Below, piece by piece: positions 2,882-63,062 of a stretch of DNA of 64,000 nucleotides. Every line of letters starts with the position of its first letter. Position 1 is the stretch's first letter. Location: the NCBI RefSeq assembly GCF_003334335.1, contig NZ_QOWQ01000026.1; one strand, written 5' to 3'. The notes under the pieces are model-generated. The model was given only the letters and a program-made list of their open reading frames with translations. It searched no databases and was not told the DNA's origin. Both the position numbers and the translations under genes were made by a program. This DNA is from Escherichia coli (GTDB taxonomy: Bacteria; Pseudomonadota; Gammaproteobacteria; Enterobacterales; Enterobacteriaceae).

Positions 2882-4792
2882 TTACCTGGAGGATGGTATC
2901 GCAAGGAAACGAACCGCACGGGCAATGTCACGGGTGCGTGGCGCGGGCGGCAGACTGGCGAGAAACGTCGCGCCGTAAGGACGCATCACCAGCCGATTGT
3001 CACAAATCACCAGCACGCCACGATCGTCGGCGTCGCGAATCAGTCGCCCTACCCCCTGTTTGAGAGTAATGACGGCATCTGGTAGTTGCACTTCATCGAA
3101 CGGGTCGCCACCGCGCAAACGACAATCTTCCATGCGCGCTTTTAACAGTGGATCATCCGGCGAGGTAAACGGCAATTTGTCGATAATTACCAATGACAAT
3201 GTATCGCCACGCACGTCCACCCCTTCCCAGAAACTGCTGGTTGCCACAAGAAGCGCATTACCGGCGCTGACAAATTGCTGCAACAGTTGCCCTTTGCTGG
3301 TTTCCCCCTGCAACAATACAGGAAGCGTCATGGTAGCGCGGAACTGCTCGGCCAGATCGCGCATCATGGCGTGCGAGGTACAAAGCATAAAACAACGACC
3401 GTTGTTAGCTTCGATGATCGGTCGCAGCATTGCCGCTAACTGGCGAGCAGAACCTGGCTGGTTGGTTTGCGGCAGATTGCGCGGCACACAGAGTAACGCC
3501 TGGCGGCTGTAATCAAATGGGCTGGGCAACAGCAACGACTCGGCCTGTTCGATGCCAAGCCGCGAGGTGAAATGATGCAGATCGTCGTTCACCGACAGCG
3601 TTGCTGAGGTGAAGATCCAGCTACCGGGTTTTTGCGCCATTAACTCTTTGAATTTATCCGCCACGCTGAGCGGCGTGAGAGCCAGAGTAAAATGGCGCGA
3701 AGTGCATTCGTACCAGTAGCTGTAGCCCGGCTGATTGATCTCTTTTAGCCGCTTCAGCCGTGTGCGATACAACGTGGCGCGCTCAAATGCCGCATCCAGC
3801 AAGGCGGAACGCCCCAGTGACAGTTTCGCCACGTCATAACAAAGTTCCAGGGTGTCATCGAGCAGTAAAAATGCCCGCTGAATTTGCGGATTAGCTAACA
3901 GCTCACGCAGGTTACCGCGATAACCTGGCTCACCGAGTTGCAGACGAAAATCCTGCGCACTCTGGGCAAGACGATCAGCGCACTTTTGTAACTGCTGGGT
4001 GTCTTTTAATTCGGTGCGGTAGGCGATGGTGATGTCTTTTGCCAGGTCGAGCAGTTGTCGACTGGAGAGTGACTGACCAAAATACTGGCTGGCAATGTCC
4101 GGTAGCTGGTGGGCTTCGTCGAAGATCATGACGTCCGCTTCCGGGATCAGTTCGCCAAATCCACTCTCTTTAACCACCATATCCGCCAGAAAGAGATGAT
4201 GGTTTACCACCACCACATCGGCGTCCATCGCTTTTTTACGTGCTTTGACCACAAAGCAATCTTTATACATCGGGCAGTCGCTGCCAAGACAGTTGTCGTT
4301 GGTGCTGGTGACCAGCGGCCACGCCTGTGAATCTTCCGCCACGCTGACGCAGGTGCTGATATCACCATCGACTGTTTGATTAGACCAGGAGCGCAGCAGG
4401 ATCACATCGCTTAAGATTTGTACCGGCAGATCGCCCCCCGCCAGCGCCTGCTGTTCGAGACGTTCGAGGCAGAGGTAGTTTGAGCGCCCTTTCAGCAGCG
4501 CCACGTTGCCCGTATATTTCAATGCCTTTGAGACTGTTGGCAAATCGCGGCTGTAGAGCTGATCCTGCAACGCTTTTGAGCCGGTCGAGATAATGACTTT
4601 CTTTTTCGCCCGCAGCGCAGGAGCCAGGTAAGCGTAGGTTTTGCCCGTACCGGTTCCTGCTTCCACCACCAGCGGCTGGCCTTTTTCTATCGCCTGGGTG
4701 ACGGCTACCGCCATCTGTCGCTGTGGTTCTCGCGGCTTAAAGCCTGGTATCGCTTTCGCCAGCTGACCGTCTGGTGCAAAATCGTCCGTCAC
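2882..4792 (-). CDS. yoaA: ATP-dependent DNA helicase YoaA (DinG/XPD-like)
   Basis: ORF track 636 aa; Walker A GTGTGKT, DEAH-type motif (FDEAHQL) and helicase C-terminal motifs. Confidence 0.92.
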   Translation of the reverse strand: MTDDFAPDGQLAKAIPGFKPREPQRQMAVAVTQAIEKGQPLVVEAGTGTGKTYAYLAPALRAKKKVIISTGSKALQDQLYSRDLPTVSKALKYTGNVALLKGRSNYLCLERLEQQALAGGDLPVQILSDVILLRSWSNQTVDGDISTCVSVAEDSQAWPLVTSTNDNCLGSDCPMYKDCFVVKARKKAMDADVVVVNHHLFLADMVVKESGFGELIPEADVMIFDEAHQLPDIASQYFGQSLSSRQLLDLAKDITIAYRTELKDTQQLQKCADRLAQSAQDFRLQLGEPGYRGNLRELLANPQIQRAFLLLDDTLELCYDVAKLSLGRSALLDAAFERATLYRTRLKRLKEINQPGYSYWYECTSRHFTLALTPLSVADKFKELMAQKPGSWIFTSATLSVNDDLHHFTSRLGIEQAESLLLPSPFDYSRQALLCVPRNLPQTNQPGSARQLAAMLRPIIEANNGRCFMLCTSHAMMRDLAEQFRATMTLPVLLQGETSKGQLLQQFVSAGNALLVATSSFWEGVDVRGDTLSLVIIDKLPFTSPDDPLLKARMEDCRLRGGDPFDEVQLPDAVITLKQGVGRLIRDADDRGVLVICDNRLVMRPYGATFLASLPPAPRTRDIARAVRFLAIPSSR

Positions 4793-27813: not shown

Positions 27814-29097
27814 ATGGCTCTTAACACACCACAAATTACGCCGACAAAAAAGATAACAGTGAGGTCAATCGGCGAGGAACTGCCGCGTGGTGATTACCAA
27901 CGTTGCCCGCAATGCGACATGCTGTTTAGCCTGCCCGAGATAAATTCTCATCAGAGTGCCTATTGTCCGCGCTGTCAGGCAAAAATTCGCGACGGGCGCG
28001 ACTGGTCGCTAACGCGCCTGGCGGCAATGGCTTTCACCATGCTGTTGCTGATGCCGTTTGCCTGGGGCGAACCGCTGTTGCATATCTGGCTGTTAGGTAT
28101 TCGTATCGACGCCAACGTCATGCAAGGCATCTGGCAAATGACCAAACAGGGCGATACGATAACGGGGGCGATGGTCTTTTTCTGCGTTATTGGTGCCCCC
28201 CTCATTCTGGTGTCCTCCATAGCATATTTATGGTTTGGTAACCGACTGGGAATGAATTTACGTCCGGTACTGCTGATGCTTGAGCGACTTAAAGAGTGGG
28301 TAATGCTGGATATCTACCTGGTCGGCATTGGCGTTGCTTCTATAAAGGTACAGGATTATGCCCATATCCAGGCGGGTGTCGGCTTGTTCTCTTTTGTGGC
28401 GTTGGTGATTTTAACGACGGTGACGTTGTCACATCTTAATGTCGAGGAGCTGTGGGAGCGATTTTATCCGCAGCGCCCCGCTACGCGTAGGGACGAGAAA
28501 CTTCGTGTCTGTCTTGGGTGCCATTTTACCGGCTATCCTGATCAGCGTGGTCGCTGCCCGCGTTGCCATATCCCGCTACGCCTGCGTCGCCGTCATAGTT
28601 TGCAAAAATGCTGGGCGGCGCTGTTAGCGTCAATCGTTTTGTTGTTACCTGCCAACCTGTTGCCTATTTCTATCATTTATCTGAACGGAGGACGGCAGGA
28701 AGATACAATTCTTTCCGGAATTATGTCGCTGGCAAGTAGCAACATTGCGGTTGCGGGAATCGTGTTTATCGCCAGTATTCTGGTACCGTTTACTAAAGTG
28801 ATCGTCATGTTCACTTTACTGTTGAGCATTCATTTTAAATGCCAGCAAGGTTTACGCACACGCATTCTGTTACTGCGGATGGTGACCTGGATTGGTCGCT
28901 GGTCGATGCTCGACCTGTTTGTCATATCTTTAACCATGTCGCTGATTAATCGCGATCAGATCCTCGCTTTTACTATGGGACCGGCTGCGTTTTATTTCGG
29001 CGCAGCGGTAATTTTGACTATTCTTGCTGTGGAATGGCTGGACAGCCGCTTACTTTGGGATGCACATGAGTCAGGAAACGCCCGCTTCGACGACTGA
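27814..29097 (+). CDS. yebS: Inner-membrane protein YebS (LetA; paired with the MCE-domain protein YebT/LetB)
   Basis: ORF track 427 aa; two Zn-ribbon-like CxxC pairs per repeat and duplicated membrane modules. Confidence 0.9.
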
Positions 29098-31699
29098 AGC
29101 GCAGATTAAAAATAAACGCCGTATCTCACCTTTCTGGCTGCTGCCGTTCATCGCGCTAATGATTGCCGGTTGGCTGATTTGGGACAGTTATCAGGACCGG
29201 GGTAATACCGTCACCATCGACTTTATGTCGGCGGATGGTATTGTCCCGGGCCGTACGCCTGTTCGTTATCAGGGCGTTGAAGTCGGAACAGTGCAGGATA
29301 TCAGCCTCAGCGACGATCTTCGTAAGATTGAAGTCAAGGTCAGCATCAAGTCCGATATGAAAGATGCGCTGCGCGAAGAGACTCAGTTCTGGCTGGTGAC
29401 GCCAAAAGCATCGTTGGCAGGTGTCTCCGGGCTGGACGCCCTCGTCGGTGGTAACTATATCGGCATGATGCCAGGTAAAGGTAAAGAGCAGGATCACTTT
29501 GTCGCACTCGATACCCAACCGAAATATCGACTGGACAATGGCGATCTGATGATCCACCTGCAAGCCCCCGATCTCGGTTCGCTGAACAGCGGTTCATTGG
29601 TCTATTTCCGCAAGATCCCTGTGGGAAAAGTCTACGACTATGCCATCAATCCCAACAAGCAAGGCGTGGTGATTGATGTCCTGATCGAGCGGCGTTTTAC
29701 CGATCTGGTGAAAAAAGGTAGCCGTTTCTGGAACGTTTCCGGCGTTGATGCCAATGTCAGTATCAGTGGCGCGAAGGTGAAACTGGAAAGTCTGGCGGCA
29801 CTGGTTAACGGTGCGATTGCCTTCGATTCACCTGAAGAGTCGAAACCTGCCGAGGCGGAAGATACCTTTGGTCTGTATGAAGATCTGGCCCACAGCCAGC
29901 GTGGCGTAATAATAAAACTGGAACTGCCGAGTGGGGCAGGATTAACCGCCGACTCGACGCCATTAATGTATCAGGGACTGGAAGTCGGACAGCTAACTAA
30001 ACTGGATTTAAATCCTGGTGGTAAAGTCACTGGGGAAATGACAGTTGATCCCAGCGTCGTTACCCTGCTTCGTGAAAATACCCGCATCGAATTACGTAAT
30101 CCGAAATTATCCCTTAGCGATGCCAATCTCAGCGCCCTGCTGACTGGCAAAACCTTCGAGTTGGTACCCGGCGATGGCGAGCCACGCAAAGAGTTCGTTG
30201 TTGTGCCAGGCGAAAAAGCACTGCTGCATGAACCTGATGTTCTGACGCTGACCCTGACCGCGCCGGAAAGTTACGGTATTGATGCTGGTCAGCCGCTCAT
30301 TCTTCACGGCGTGCAGGTAGGCCAGGTTATCGATCGTAAACTCACCAGCAAAGGCGTCACCTTTACCGTCGCCATCGAGCCTCAGCATCGAGAACTGGTA
30401 AAAGGCGATAGCAAATTTGTCGTCAACAGCCGTGTCGACGTGAAGGTGGGGCTGGATGGCGTTGAGTTTCTCGGTGCCAGCGCCTCAGAATGGATTAACG
30501 GCGGGATACGTATTCTGCCGGGCGATAAAGGCGAGATGAAAGCCAGCTATCCACTGTATGCCAATCTGGAAAAAGCGCTGGAGAACAGCCTTAGCGATTT
30601 ACCCACCACAACCGTGAGTTTGAGTGCAGAGACGCTGCCGGATGTGCAGGCAGGATCGGTAGTGCTCTACCGTAAATTTGAAGTTGGTGAAGTTATTACC
30701 GTGCGTCCGCGAGCTAACGCGTTTGATATCGATCTGCATATTAAGCCGGAGTATCGCAACCTTCTGACCAGCAATAGCGTGTTCTGGGCAGAAGGCGGGG
30801 CGAAAGTTCAGCTGAATGGTAGTGGCCTGACCGTACAGGCATCCCCGCTCTCCAGAGCATTAAAAGGGGCTATTAGCTTCGATAACCTCAGTGGTGCCAG
30901 CGCCAGTCAGCGTAAAGGCGACAAACGTATTCTGTATGCTTCCGAAACAGCGGCCCGTGCGGTTGGTGGGCAGATTACGCTTCACGCTTTCGATGCCGGA
31001 AAACTGGCGGTCGGGATGCCAATTCGCTATCTCGGTATTGATATCGGGCAAATCCAGACGCTGGATCTGATTACCGCGCGCAATGAAGTACAGGCAAAGG
31101 CGGTGCTCTATCCGGAATATGTCCAGACCTTTGCTCGCGGTGGTACGCGCTTCTCAGTGGTCACACCGCAAATTTCGGCAGCTGGCGTTGAGCATCTAGA
31201 TACTATCCTCCAGCCGTATATCAACGTCGAACCAGGCCGGGGCAATCCTCGCCGCGACTTTGAATTACAAGAGGCCACCATTACTGATTCGCGTTACCTG
31301 GATGGCTTAAGCATTATTGTTGAAGCGCCGGAAGCCGGTTCGTTAGGTATTGGTACGCCTGTGCTGTTCCGTGGTCTGGAAGTCGGTACGGTTACAGGAA
31401 TGACGCTGGGGACATTGTCAGATCGCGTGATGATTGCGATGCGCATCAGTAAACGCTATCAACACCTGGTGCGTAACAATTCCGTCTTCTGGTTGGCATC
31501 GGGTTACAGTCTGGACTTTGGTCTGACGGGCGGCGTAGTGAAAACCGGCACCTTTAACCAGTTTATCCGTGGCGGCATCGCCTTCGCCACGCCTCCGGGT
31601 ACGCCACTGGCACCGAAAGCCCAGGAAGGCAAACACTTCCTGTTGCAGGAAAGTGAACCGAAAGAGTGGCGTGAATGGGGAACTGCGCTTCCCAAATAA
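29066..31699 (+). CDS. yebT: Multi-MCE-domain intermembrane transport protein YebT (LetB)
   Basis: ORF track 29024..31699 trimmed to the ATG at 29066 ([28 protein letters not shown]..., 877 aa); overlaps yebS 3' end by 32 nt; repeated MCE-domain pattern. Confidence 0.9.
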
Positions 31700-33676: not shown

Positions 33677-33868
33677 ATGTTCGCGCTGGTACTTTTTGTT
33701 TGCTACCTGGATGGCGGTTGTGAAGATATCGTTGTGGATGTCTACAACACGGAACAGCAGTGTCTTTATTCTATGAGCGATCAACGGATCCGCCATGGCG
33801 GTTGTTTTCCGATTGAGGATTTTATAGATGGTTTCTGGCGACCTGCACAGGAGTATGGTGATTTTTAA
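33677..33868 (+). CDS. yebW: Small protein YebW
   Basis: ORF track 33593..33868 trimmed to MFALVLFVCYLDGG... (63 aa). Confidence 0.7.
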   Translation: MFALVLFVCYLDGGCEDIVVDVYNTEQQCLYSMSDQRIRHGGCFPIEDFIDGFWRPAQEYGDF

Positions 33869-34525
33869 TTATTGCAATTGCACAAGAGTCAGTTCGCCCC
33901 CAAAGACAGCACCTGTATCAATATAATGCAGGTTGCCAATATCCACGCGATGGCGCAACGGTGTATGACCAAACCAGAAATGATCAGCACCTGTAATTCC
34001 CTGCCCTTTTTGGCGTTCACCTAATCGCGAGCGGCTCCACAAGACCTGATGCAAATCAACGTCCTTTTGCCATTCATAAACATCATCTGGATAATCGGCA
34101 TGAGCAATAACATGTTTGCCGGTGCGACTATGTACTTCAAGAATAAAGGGCAAATGCTGACATTTTTCCAGCGCCGTTTTCGCTTGTTTCTGTTGATTAT
34201 CTGCCAGCGCAATAAACCAGTCGCCGCCATTCATCAACCACAAAGACATCTGCTGGGATGCCAGCGCATCCATCGCCATCTGTTCATGATTGCCTCTTAC
34301 CGCACAAACCCAATGTTGTTCCAGTAACTGCAGACAACGTAAACTTTGCGGCCCACGATCGATAACGTCTCCCACTGAGATAAGTAAATCTCGCCACGGA
34401 TCAAAACGACAATGCCATAATTTGCGGCGCAACTGCTCAAGACAACCGTGTATATCGCCAGAAAGCCAGATATGTCGCCATTGATGACCCGCAATTCTCT
34501 GATAAACGGGCGCAGGCTGTTTCAT
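33869..34525 (-). CDS. pphA: Serine/threonine protein phosphatase 1 (PPP-family)
   Basis: ORF track 219 aa; metallophosphoesterase motifs GDIHG, GDVIDRG, GNHE; start is one of two adjacent ATGs. Confidence 0.92.
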   Translation of the reverse strand: MKQPAPVYQRIAGHQWRHIWLSGDIHGCLEQLRRKLWHCRFDPWRDLLISVGDVIDRGPQSLRCLQLLEQHWVCAVRGNHEQMAMDALASQQMSLWLMNGGDWFIALADNQQKQAKTALEKCQHLPFILEVHSRTGKHVIAHADYPDDVYEWQKDVDLHQVLWSRSRLGERQKGQGITGADHFWFGHTPLRHRVDIGNLHYIDTGAVFGGELTLVQLQ

Positions 34526-34766
34526 CAATATTTTCCTCCCGCGCTAAAGATCACATAATCTTAACAAGAATGTTAAAAAACGCTGGACTCAGACAGTAGA
34601 GTGTGTGTTATGGTTGACTATAAAGTCAGCGAAGGAAATGCTTCTGGCTTTTAACAGATAAAAAGAGACCGAACACGATTCCTGTATTCGGTCCAGGGAA
34701 ATGGCTCTTGGGAGAGAGCCGTGCGCTAAAAGTTGGCATTAATGCAGGCTTAGTTGCCTTGCCCTT
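34520..34766 (+). ncRNA. ryeA: RyeA (SraC) sRNA, antisense partner overlapping SdsR
   Basis: RyeA is known to be encoded opposite SdsR between pphA and yebY; ends placed from recalled length (~250 nt), not determined from sequence. Confidence 0.4.
34659..34762 (-). ncRNA. sdsR: SdsR (RyeB) sigma-S-dependent sRNA
   Basis: Minus-strand read GCAAGGCAACTAAGCCTGCATTAATGCCAACTTTTAGCGCACGGCTCTCTCCCAAGAGCCATTTCCCTGGACCGAATACAGGAATCGTGTTCGGTCTCTTTTT matches the SdsR sequence as I recall it, including the terminator hairpin and U-tract. Confidence 0.85.
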
Positions 34767-34920
34767 TAAGAATAGATGACGACGCCAGGTTTTCCAGTTT
34801 GCGTGCAAAATGGTCAATAAAAAGCGCGGTAGTCATCAGCTTAAATGTTAAAAACCGCCCGTTCTGGTGAAAGAACTGAGGCGGTTTTTTTATTGGAAAT
34901 CAAAAGGCTATTTTAGGTAA

Positions 34921-37675: not shown

Positions 37676-40422
<2,747 letters not shown>

Positions 40423-54217: not shown

Positions 54218-54973
54218 ATGACAAGTCTGGTTTCCCTGGAAAATGTCTCGGTTTCTTTTGGCCAACGCCGCGTCCTCTCTGATGTGTCGCTGGAACTTAA
54301 ACCTGGAAAAATTTTGACTTTACTTGGGCCAAATGGCGCAGGTAAGTCGACACTGGTACGGGTAGTGCTCGGGCTGGTAACACCCGATGAAGGGGGTATC
54401 AAGCGCAACGGAAAACTGCGCATCGGCTATGTACCGCAGAAGCTGTATCTCGACACCACGTTGCCACTGACCGTAAACCGTTTTTTACGCTTACGCCCTG
54501 GTACACATAAAGAAGATATTTTGCCTGCACTGAAACGTGTCCAGGCCGGGCACCTGATTAACGCACCGATGCAAAAGCTCTCTGGTGGCGAAACGCAGCG
54601 TGTACTGTTAGCGCGAGCATTGTTAAATCGCCCGCAATTATTAGTGCTGGATGAACCCACTCAAGGCGTGGATGTAAATGGCCAGGTGGCGTTATATGAC
54701 CTTATTGACCAACTGCGTCGTGAACTGGATTGTGGCGTTTTAATGGTTTCTCACGATCTGCATCTGGTGATGGCAAAAACCGATGAAGTGCTGTGCCTGA
54801 ATCACCACATTTGTTGTTCCGGCACACCGGAAGTTGTTTCCCTGCATCCGGAGTTTATTTCAATGTTTGGTCCTCGTGGTGCTGAACAACTGGGTATCTA
54901 TCGCCATCATCATAACCATCGTCACGATTTACAGGGACGAATTGTTTTGCGTCGGGGAAATGATCGCTCATGA
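54218..54973 (+). CDS. znuC: Zinc ABC transporter ATP-binding protein ZnuC
   Basis: ORF track 251 aa; Walker [10 protein letters not shown], signature LSGGETQR, Walker B LLVLDEP. Confidence 0.95.
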
Positions 54974-55755
54974 TTGAATTATTATTTCCCGGTTGGTTAG
55001 CCGGGATCATGCTCGCCTGTGCCGCGGGTCCGCTGGGTTCGTTTGTAGTCTGGCGTCGTATGTCTTATTTCGGTGATACGCTGGCTCATGCCTCATTACT
55101 TGGTGTCGCGTTTGGTTTGTTGCTGGACGTGAATCCATTCTATGCGGTGATTGCCGTTACGCTGCTGCTGGCGGGCGGTCTGGTATGGCTGGAGAAGCGT
55201 CCACAGCTGGCGATCGACACGTTATTAGGGATTATGGCGCACAGTGCCCTGTCGCTGGGCCTGGTGGTCGTTAGTCTGATGTCTAATATTCGTGTTGATT
55301 TGATGGCTTACCTGTTCGGTGATTTGCTGGCAGTGACGCCAGAAGATCTCATCTCTATTGCGATTGGCGTGGTCATCGTGGTGGCTATTTTGTTCTGGCA
55401 ATGGCGCAATTTGCTGTCGATGACGATTAGCCCGGATCTGGCGTTTGTTGATGGTGTGAAATTACAGCGCGTGAAATTGTTGTTGATGCTGGTGACGGCA
55501 TTGACGATTGGTGTAGCGATGAAATTTGTCGGCGCGTTGATTATTACTTCGTTGCTGATTATTCCTGCAGCTACTGCGCGTCGCTTTGCCCGCACGCCGG
55601 AACAGATGGCTGGTGTCGCTGTTTTGGTGGGGATGGTGGCAGTAACTGGCGGTTTAACCTTTTCCGCATTTTACGATACGCCGGCTGGTCCGTCGGTGGT
55701 GCTATGTGCGGCACTGTTATTTATTCTCAGTATGATGAAAAAGCAGGCCAGCTAA
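54970..55755 (+). CDS. znuB: Zinc ABC transporter permease ZnuB
   Basis: ORF track 261 aa; start overlaps znuC stop (ATGA). Confidence 0.95.
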
Positions 55756-57807: not shown

Positions 57808-58410
57808 GTGAATATTAATTACCCTGCTGAATATGAAATTGGAGATATCGTCTTTACATGTATAGGTGCTGCCTTATTTGGTCAAATATCAGCTGCATCA
57901 AATTGTTGGAGTAATCACGTCGGGATCATTATCGGTCATAACGGTGAAGACTTCCTGGTTGCAGAAAGCCGGGTCCCCCTTTCAACCATCACCACGCTAT
58001 CTCGTTTTATTAAACGTTCGTCTAATCAACGCTATGCTATAAAGCGATTAGACGCTGGGCTGACAGAACAACAAAAACAACGAATTGTTGAACAGATTCC
58101 CTCCCGGCTACGCAAACTCTACCACACCGGTTTTAAATACGAATCTTCGCGCCAGTTCTGTTCAAAATTTGTCTTTGATATTTATAAAGAGGCGCTATGT
58201 ATTCCGGTGGGTGAAATAGAGACGTTTGGAGAACTGTTAAATAGCAATCCGAATGCAAAACTCACTTTCTGGAAATTCTGGTTCCTAGGTTCTATTCCGT
58301 GGGAGCGTAAAACCGTCACGCCAGCCAGTTTGTGGCATCATCCGGGTTTGGTGTTGATTCATGCGGAGGGAGTGGAAACGCCTCAGCCGGAACTGACCGA
58401 GGCGGTATAA
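57808..58410 (+). CDS. yebB: Uncharacterized protein YebB (DUF830)
   Basis: ORF track 57736..58410; recalled protein is ~200 aa, so start placed at GTG 57808 ([16 protein letters not shown]...); start uncertain. Confidence 0.7.
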
Positions 58411-58411
58411 C

Positions 58412-58933
58412 TTAACGCAGTCGCCCTCTCGCCAGGTTCAGCCGCGATTCGCTCATCTGCATCGCATTCTGACTGACGTGACAATGGGTAATCGCGATAG
58501 CTAACGCATCGGCGGCATCCGCCTGTGGATTAGCGGGCAGTTTCAGCAAGGTGCGGACCATATGCTGCACCTGGCTTTTTTCGGCACTACCAATACCTAC
58601 CACCGTTTGCTTTACCTGACGTGCCGCGTATTCAAATACCGGCAATTCCTGATTCACCGCCGCAACAATCGCCACGCCGCGCGCCTGGCCCAGTTTCAGG
58701 GCTGAGTCAGCGTTCTTCGCCATAAAGACTTGTTCAATGGCGAAATAATCAGGCTGGAACTGGGTGATGATTTCCGTCACGCCCGCATAGATGAGCTTCA
58801 GACGAGACGGTAAATCATCCACTTTGGTGCGTATGCATCCGCTACCCAGGTAGGACAGTTGCCTGCCTACCTGGCGAATTACGCCATAGCCGGTCACGCG
58901 CGAACCCGGATCAATGCCGAGAATAATAGCCAT
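58412..58933 (-). CDS. ruvC: Crossover junction endodeoxyribonuclease RuvC
   Basis: ORF track 58412..58936; recalled protein starts [17 protein letters not shown] (173 aa). Confidence 0.95.
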
Positions 58934-62388: not shown

Positions 62389-62955
62389 ATGCTTGAACTT
62401 AATGCTAAAACCACTGCGTTGGTGGTGATCGATTTACAAGAAGGCATCTTACCTTTTGCCGGTGGTCCACATACTGCCGATGAGGTAGTTAATCGCGCCG
62501 GGAAGCTGGCGGCGAAATTTCGCGCCAGCGGTCAGCCCGTGTTTCTGGTGCGAGTTGGCTGGTCTGTCGATTACGCCGAAGCATTAAAACAGCCGGTTGA
62601 TGCCCCCTCCCCCGCTAAAGTGTTGCCCGAAAACTGGTGGCAACATCCAGCTGCATTAGGTGCAACTGACAGTGATATCGAAATCATCAAACGTCAGTGG
62701 GGTGCGTTTTACGGTACGGATCTGGAGTTGCAACTGCGCCGCCGAGGTATCGATACAATAGTGTTATGTGGGATCTCGACCAATATCGGTGTTGAATCCA
62801 CCGCCCGCAATGCCTGGGAACTTGGCTTTAATCTGGTGATTGCCGAAGACGCCTGTAGTGCCGCCAGCGCCGAGCAACACAATAACAGCATTAATCATAT
62901 CTACCCGCGCATCGCCCGTGTGCGTAGCGTGGAAGAGATCCTTCACGCGTTATGA
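62389..62955 (+). CDS. yecD: Isochorismatase-family hydrolase YecD
   Basis: ORF track 62356..62955 trimmed to the ATG at 62389 ([17 protein letters not shown]..., 188 aa). Confidence 0.88.
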
Positions 62956-63062
62956 TTTACATCGGTCTACCGCAATGGTCGCATCCTAAATGGGTGCGGT
63001 TGGGGATCACCAGCCTTGAAGAGTATGCCCGCCACTTTAACTGCGTGATACGGGATTTTTAA
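62952..63062 (+). pseudogene. yecE: yecE (DUF72) 5' fragment: first ~32 codons intact, then sequence diverges and hits a stop after 4 foreign codons
   Basis: ATG overlaps yecD stop (ATGA). Translation [32 protein letters not shown] matches the YecE N-terminus as I recall it, then IRDF* instead of the expected EVNTTFY...; no long ORF follows. Confidence 0.75.

Follow-up and report, generated by a model that had tools for sequence, protein, structure and literature searches.

The lipid-transport genes letA and letB (yebS and yebT) meet in the Escherichia coli chromosome at a native operon junction where the letB start, ATG 29066, lies within the last 11 codons of letA, and this is very probably a start at which ribosomes initiate independently, held in place while the letA stop codon drifts. 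According to this scheme, letB would be translated chiefly through 30S subunits that bind de novo to an open initiation region with weak Shine-Dalgarno (SD) assistance, built into the conserved LetA codons ...Arg-Leu-Leu-Trp-Asp-Ala-His. An independent start would let LetB exceed LetA, as it does in the 6:1 complex, from a single mRNA, and the length of the overlap would be a by-product, with the letB ATG staying where it is and the letA stop moving about within the letB 5' end. In an operon with a 1:6 subunit ratio, the start of the abundant subunit is embedded in the coding end of the scarce one and has been kept fixed over deep divergence. All positions below are those of the window, that is, the whole stretch of 64,000 nucleotides that was analysed, and the features discussed are collected in Table 1.

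Table 1. Features of the letA/letB junction and of the other gene junctions considered, in window coordinates
Feature	Positions	Strand	Remarks
mntP(+)/rlmA(-) TTAA	17808..17811	.	second convergent stop/stop overlap; missed in the first-pass annotation
letA (yebS) CDS	27814..29097	+	427 aa, PqiA-family inner-membrane protein; ORF list, identical RefSeq sequence, K-12 b1833
Synonymous-constraint zone in letA	29017..29065	+	putative letB initiation region; includes U/A-rich CUUACUUU of rare Leu codons
TTG, rejected as start	29024..29026	+	opens 891-aa mechanical ORF; weak SD; missing in L014, L030 and L033
Weak SD-like GGGA	29057..29060	+	5 nt before letB ATG; from LetA Trp415-Asp416 codons (UGG GAU)
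Alternative in-frame ATG, probably not a start	29060..29062	+	6 nt upstream of 29066; first-pass annotation silent on it
letB (yebT) CDS	29066..31699	+	877 aa, seven-MCE-domain tunnel protein; RefSeq, K-12 b1834
letA/letB overlap	29066..29097	+	32 nt; letB in +1 frame relative to letA
Predicted 7-bp hairpin, unproven	29083..29101	+	spans letA stop codon; stem kept in 24/25 sequences; variation mainly in loop
exoX/ptrB TTAA	38335..38338	.	4 nt; exoX stop (TAA, +) and ptrB stop (TAA, -); exoX 37676-38338 (+), ptrB 38335-40395 (-)
znuC/znuB ATGA	54970..54973	+	znuC stop/znuB start (-4); znuC 54218-54973, znuB 54970-55755
yecD/yecE ATGA	62952..62955	+	yecD stop/yecE start (-4); also in K-12
yecE 5' remnant	62952..63062	+	pseudogene in window strain; 32 native codons, 4 foreign codons, stop

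The letA/letB junction across lineages

The window is a part of the E. coli chromosome that extends from pabB to yecD. A 4.3-kb query around letA/letB matches several RefSeq E. coli chromosomes at 100% identity and was found in 5425 of 5426 complete genomes, annotated as msrC - yebS - yebT - rsmF, and the K-12 MG1655 chromosome is colinear with positions 27056-63047, at 98.9% nucleotide identity over 36 kb. Sequence identity and the yebS/yebT annotation in RefSeq E. coli genomes identify the gene pair as the letAB operon; the gene map is based on the feature tables of the matching strain, a second strain and K-12. Precomputed domain assignments place PF04403 on the LetA homologues and PF02470 on the neighbouring proteins of 876-881 aa, and the same gene order, a PqiA-domain protein and then a long MlaD/MCE protein, flanked by prc-proQ on the upstream side or rsmF on the downstream side, recurs in distant loci as well. 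Some incidental features of the region deserve mention. In the best-matching RefSeq strain, ECZP248 (L001), yoaE, yobD, kdgR and ptrB are flagged as frameshifted; these flags may be assembly errors in the record of that strain, since the window has intact ORFs for both ptrB (686 aa) and yoaE (518 aa). The K-12 record also annotates ryeA and sdsR, two overlapping sRNAs antisense to each other, between pphA and yebY (1923066-1923337; window about 34620-34895).

The first-pass annotation had noted that the 5' end of yebT overlaps the 3' end of yebS by 32 nt, and the ORFs, the RefSeq/PGAP annotation and the K-12 record concur. In the curated K-12 record, letA occupies 1916258-1917541 and letB 1917510-1920143, with 1917510-1917541 common to both, and the RefSeq/PGAP start of letB agrees with that of K-12 and with ATG 29066. 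The overlap encodes LetA from a part of residue 418 to residue 427 and the stop, along with LetB residues 1-11. It is published and annotated: the 2026 structure paper on LetAB states that letA and letB 'overlap by 32 bp'. The same paper describes a complex of six LetB per one LetA, in which LetA is modelled to residue 418, where TMD-C ends, and LetA 419-427 and LetB 1-13 have no cryo-EM density, so that the overlap codes for unresolved tails only. The letB ATG lies at letA codon 418, which specifies the last residue that is ordered. The functional selection in that work used a plasmid with a refactored, non-overlapping letAB as the wild-type background, which implies that the overlap is dispensable for function, at least from a plasmid.

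The identity of the start codon is well supported. We fetched 80 Enterobacteriaceae loci with LetA 77-97% identical, of which 77 were aligned for codon analyses; this search for close relatives covered LetA homologues at least 77% identical only, and distant orthologues were recovered by a representative search and contig look-ups. All 80 loci have an ATG at the position that corresponds to 29066, and letA codon 418 is CAT in each of the 77 aligned ones, where the synonymous CAC would destroy the letB ATG. The ATG is found at the same codon offset in orthologues in which LetA is only 37-50% identical and the synteny is prc-proQ-letA-letB(-rsmF); in three of these (L085, L087 and L090), it follows the LetA motif DSRL(L/I)W(D/K)x(H/Y), always as (C/T)AT-G. 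One of the close relatives, Kluyvera ascorbata (L062), has a best letB protein match that begins only at anchor residue 48 while its junction DNA aligns normally, which suggests an early letB frameshift or an assembly error in that record.

The position of the letA stop is a different matter. The overlap spans 56 nt in L085, 38 nt in L087 and 11 nt in L090, because the length of the LetA tail differs, and among more distant loci there is an 8-nt overlap (L088) and a gap (L089); one further candidate (P0135/L091) proved not to be a letAB locus and was set aside. Within the Enterobacteriaceae, four loci (L014, L030, L033 and L061), belonging to three Citrobacter species and Superficieibacter electus, carry GGA in place of the stop codon TGA (window 29095; about 4281-4296 in the four loci), so that the next stop comes 12 nt further on, LetA gains 4 residues (431 aa) and the overlap is 44 nt. 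Overlaps reportedly arise by stop-codon loss and extension, and these four loci illustrate, in natural sequences, how the loss of a stop codon lengthens an overlap. Across the sequences compared, the start site is fixed, and the length of the overlap (11, 32, 38, 44 or 56 nt) appears to follow the drift of the letA stop codon, which would wander through sequence that encodes only disordered tails.

Constraint on the putative letB initiation region

Synonymous variability is at its lowest around the junction in both genes. In the 77 aligned loci, the variability of letA third positions is 0.379 in the gene body, falls to 0.184 at 28998-29032 and 0.053 at 29033-29065, and reaches 0.03 in the overlap; letB third positions stand at 0.053 in the overlap, rise to 0.247 over the following 63 nt and are at 0.364 further into the gene. 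A codon-aware scan likewise finds the lowest 11-codon windows of both genes in the overlap: those of letA have values of 0.007-0.058, where the median for the gene is 0.391, and letB has a value of 0.05, where the median is 0.367. With variability of 0.02-0.05 at all codon positions, the overlap bears the mark of selection on two reading frames. There is one clearly variable spot inside it: LetA residue 426 (29089-29091) is Asp in the window strain and in 13 of the 77 loci and mostly Ala elsewhere, and the same bases also change LetB residue 9, from Thr to Gln or Pro.

The constraint extends beyond the overlap. It can be traced back to around letA codon 402, some 50 nt ahead of the letB ATG, and letA codons 402-404, 408-409, 413-415 and 418 show no synonymous variation in 75-77 of the 77 loci. 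Two rare Leu codons, TTA413 and CTT414, are the sole Leu codons used at their positions in 75 and 76 of the 77 loci, respectively, and form a U/A-rich tract ahead of the GGGA; the TGG of LetA Trp415 is invariant in 77 of 77, and distant orthologues have UGGGAU or UGGAAA at the equivalent place. The calculated anti-SD duplex energy is -4.0 kcal/mol for ATG 29066 compared with -3.0 and -3.1 kcal/mol for the candidates at 29024 and 29060, and letA itself has essentially no SD (-1.5 kcal/mol). A TTGACT at 29014 was considered as part of an internal promoter and discarded, no plausible -10 being apparent by eye at a spacing of 16-17 nt.

It is conceivable, although we consider it rather unlikely, that the near-invariant island of ~85 nt at 29017-29101 serves as a dedicated device for setting the LetB:LetA output at 6:1, over and above an ordinary ribosome-binding site and dual coding. 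Such a device could work, for example, through letA-translating ribosomes that gate letB initiation, or through a downstream 'starting-block' hairpin that aids the weak SD. The predicted hairpin that spans the letA stop codon, with the variable spot at 29089-29091 in its loop, displays no compensatory change, and its z-score is non-significant.

How ribosomes reach the letB start

The most direct evidence on letB initiation comes from INRI-seq (PMC9825163), in which a purified translation system containing retapamulin was supplied with synthetic mRNAs that each comprised 30 nt of upstream sequence and the initial 153 nt of a K-12 ORF. A yebT peak lies at K-12 1917510, which is window position 29066, in five of five replicates (29.8-69.1 CPM), and the complete Table S3 of that study lists no alternative initiation site for b1834. 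As the letA start is not part of this template, ribosomes can initiate at the letB ATG independently of letA translation, at least in vitro. The mean peaks are ~49 CPM for letB on a 58.7-CPM template and ~7.3 CPM for letA on a 541-CPM template, the letB template being ~9-fold scarcer, although these peak heights are uncalibrated for initiation rate, come from an in vitro system and have a resolution of only +/-3 nt. The direction, letB above letA, agrees with the six LetB per LetA of the complex, and the relative output of the two genes might match 6:1. In the in vivo Ribo-RET data tabulated in the same paper (PMC9825163), the signal is 0 for both letA and letB, which are poorly expressed, and the zero values are consistent with that low expression. 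The TRAINSPOTTER N-terminomics supplements contain no LetA or LetB entry, the supplements of Mori et al. 2021 no entry for LetA/LetB synthesis or abundance, and a full-text literature search for yebS/yebT with ribosome profiling found nothing.

From the in vitro initiation, the subunit ratio, the unstructured initiation region and the loss of coupling at -25 nt in reporters, we infer that letB is translated mainly by independent initiation and that termination-reinitiation is a minor route at most. The latter would have ribosomes that finish letA at 29095-29097 back up 32 nt and restart at ATG 29066, and it is this kind of translational coupling that the first-pass annotation proposed for letA/letB along with the two ATGA pairs. 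The genes are co-transcribed and overlap, the letB SD is weak, as the duplex energy given above indicates, and scanning by post-termination ribosomes is documented for short spacings (PMC12548453). However, in the reporter series covered by the same 2025 review (PMC12548453), coupling weakened with increasing overlap from -4 nt onwards and had disappeared at -25 nt. Moreover, letB initiates in vitro from a template with only 30 nt of upstream sequence and no translation of letA; the initiation signal of letA is below that of letB; the 6:1 complex requires LetB in excess of LetA, which reinitiation cannot supply; the refactored operon works with no overlap at all; and the overlap length is not conserved, with values between 11 and 56 nt and, in one case, a gap. 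For the 32-nt overlap, coupling of this kind as the main route is decidedly unlikely. Independent initiation in vitro is nevertheless compatible with some added contribution, positive or negative, from letA-translating ribosomes in vivo.

Coupling could also operate by unfolding, if an RNA structure masked the letB initiation region until ribosomes at the letA 3' end opened it. The minimum-free-energy fold does pair 29012-29019 with 29069-29076 around the start, and the region is highly conserved, but the predicted fold of the initiation region is no more stable than that of shuffled sequences (z -0.06 and +0.54), the long-range helix is disrupted by substitutions that occur naturally at 29013 and 29016, and the naked fragments initiate in vitro. 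None of 24 pairs at the junction has a compensatory change, the region being too invariant for a fair covariation test, and an Rfam search of the junction returned no match at E<=1. With no Rfam match, no significant folding and no covariation, a structured RNA element at the junction is unsupported, and we regard the unfolding route as very improbable.

There is, finally, the choice of codon. Taken mechanically, the letB reading frame opens at TTG 29024 (891 aa), and between this codon and 29066 lies a second candidate, ATG 29060. The TTG is missing in three species (L014, L030 and L033), and in the frame extended from it, natural substitutions at 29028, 29031, 29043 and 29061 that are silent in letA would be radical (Leu>Gln, Trp>Leu/Ser, Thr>Ile, Met>Thr); the same substitutions and losses led us to reject this frame as the cause of the upstream constraint. 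ATG 29060 is absent from 20 of the 80 loci, usually through a synonymous GAT>GAC change in letA, and in the GTDB E. coli representative (L003), it is lost by G>A at 29062, which converts LetA Ala417 to Thr. Although the upstream candidates are in frame with no stop in between, and INRI-seq has a resolution of +/-3 nt and a template that excludes 29024, a mis-set start, be it TTG 29024 (a 74-nt overlap), ATG 29060 (38 nt) or a non-canonical start past the letA stop (no overlap), is extremely improbable, considering the losses and weaker SDs of both upstream codons, the radical changes between 29024 and 29066, the distant orthologues, which carry only the homologous ATG, and the lack of any ATG, GTG or TTG between 29066 and the letB transmembrane helix codons.

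The result for the junction matters mainly for the quality of annotation, in that the curated starts in the region are right, and as a caution that a long gene overlap does not automatically imply translational coupling.

Other junctions in the window and comparison with known systems

Three further junctions had been singled out together with letA/letB, namely, ATGA overlaps at znuC/znuB and yecD/yecE and a TTAA in which the exoX and ptrB stop codons overlap on opposite strands. All four are placed correctly and recur both in the RefSeq annotation and in the curated K-12 record, and all are ordinary, previously annotated features of the E. coli chromosome. The start codons chosen by the first-pass annotation are right as well, as indicated by conservation, by cell-free initiation for letB, znuB and yecD, and by in vivo Ribo-RET for yecD and exoX. 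Its argument that the overlaps help confirm these starts is circular.

The two ATGA pairs have the proximity of stop and start that termination-reinitiation involves, unlike letA/letB at -32 nt, and ATGA (-4) is the commonest prokaryotic overlap motif (PMC12548453). Here, the suggestion of coupling is plausible for both and suits yecD/yecE best, even as it is weak for letA/letB. The znuC/znuB overlap lies where it had been placed; znuB has a good SD (-7.3 kcal/mol) and initiates independently in vitro (43-60 CPM; PMC9825163). By contrast, yecE has no SD, its start region is less open (unpaired probability 0.32), and INRI-seq (PMC9825163) gives no in vitro initiation peak for it, so that yecE most plausibly depends on yecD translation. 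In the tables of that study (PMC9825163), the start of yecD is supported in both assays and that of exoX in vivo, and there is no signal for znuC, yecE or ptrB.

In the window strain, the ATGA of yecD/yecE is present, but the second gene is not intact, and what follows the overlap is a remnant of just 36 codons. Colinearity with K-12 extends as far as 63047, at yecE codon 32; the 961 bases after that point show 100% identity to prophage P-EibC (eaaC end) of E. coli ECOR-9, and a closely matching RefSeq strain has its yecE CDS noted as 'incomplete'. A lambdoid P-EibC-like prophage is integrated in yecE. The prophage stretch includes a DinI-like ORF (63310-63558), which, in a similar strain, is followed by a gene for an S6-family (SPATE) peptidase.

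The exoX/ptrB overlap likewise turned out as described, with exoX and ptrB (686 aa) both intact and the same arrangement in K-12; a promoter and terminator scan around this junction yielded matches at chance level. The TTAA at mntP/rlmA is of the same kind, and both sites are convergent genes with a common palindromic stop-codon pair. Elsewhere in the window, the stop codons of yebW and pphA directly adjoin each other (TAATTA, 33866-33871), and yebB and ruvC converge with a 1-nt gap (about 58410-58412). Convergent genes in the region generally leave no room for intergenic terminators. In view of the additional TTAA, the abutting yebW/pphA stops and the 1-nt yebB/ruvC gap, tight or overlapping junctions of these kinds are common in the window and not special.

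Compared with known systems, the junction is, first of all, that of letAB (yebST, b1833/b1834) of E. coli K-12, with identical genes, start and 32-nt overlap and only strain-level differences in sequence. The convergent genes with common complementary TTAA stops, exoX/ptrB and mntP/rlmA, are alike and in no way unusual. The NTGA (-4) coupled overlaps (Huber et al. 2019, PMC6728339; PMC12548453) have textbook ATGA counterparts in znuC/znuB and yecD/yecE, and yecE, with neither an SD nor an initiation signal of its own, is what would be expected of a coupled downstream gene. Here, znuB differs in that it initiates independently in vitro, and letA/letB differs in that its 32-nt overlap lies outside the measured range of coupling and contains its own active start site. 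Among overlaps that result from stop-codon loss (Fonseca et al. 2014, compared by abstract and general knowledge), the change of the letA stop from TGA to GGA, which takes the overlap from 32 to 44 nt, finds a close likeness. The paralogous E. coli MCE operon, pqiABC, also has the gene for a membrane protein of the PqiA family and then, in the same direction and closely packed, that for a multi-MCE protein, but with a 4-nt gap between pqiA and pqiB and a 4-nt overlap between pqiB and pqiC. In a pqiAB-like locus in our set (L092), the gap is 7 nt; of these systems, only letAB has the long overlap.
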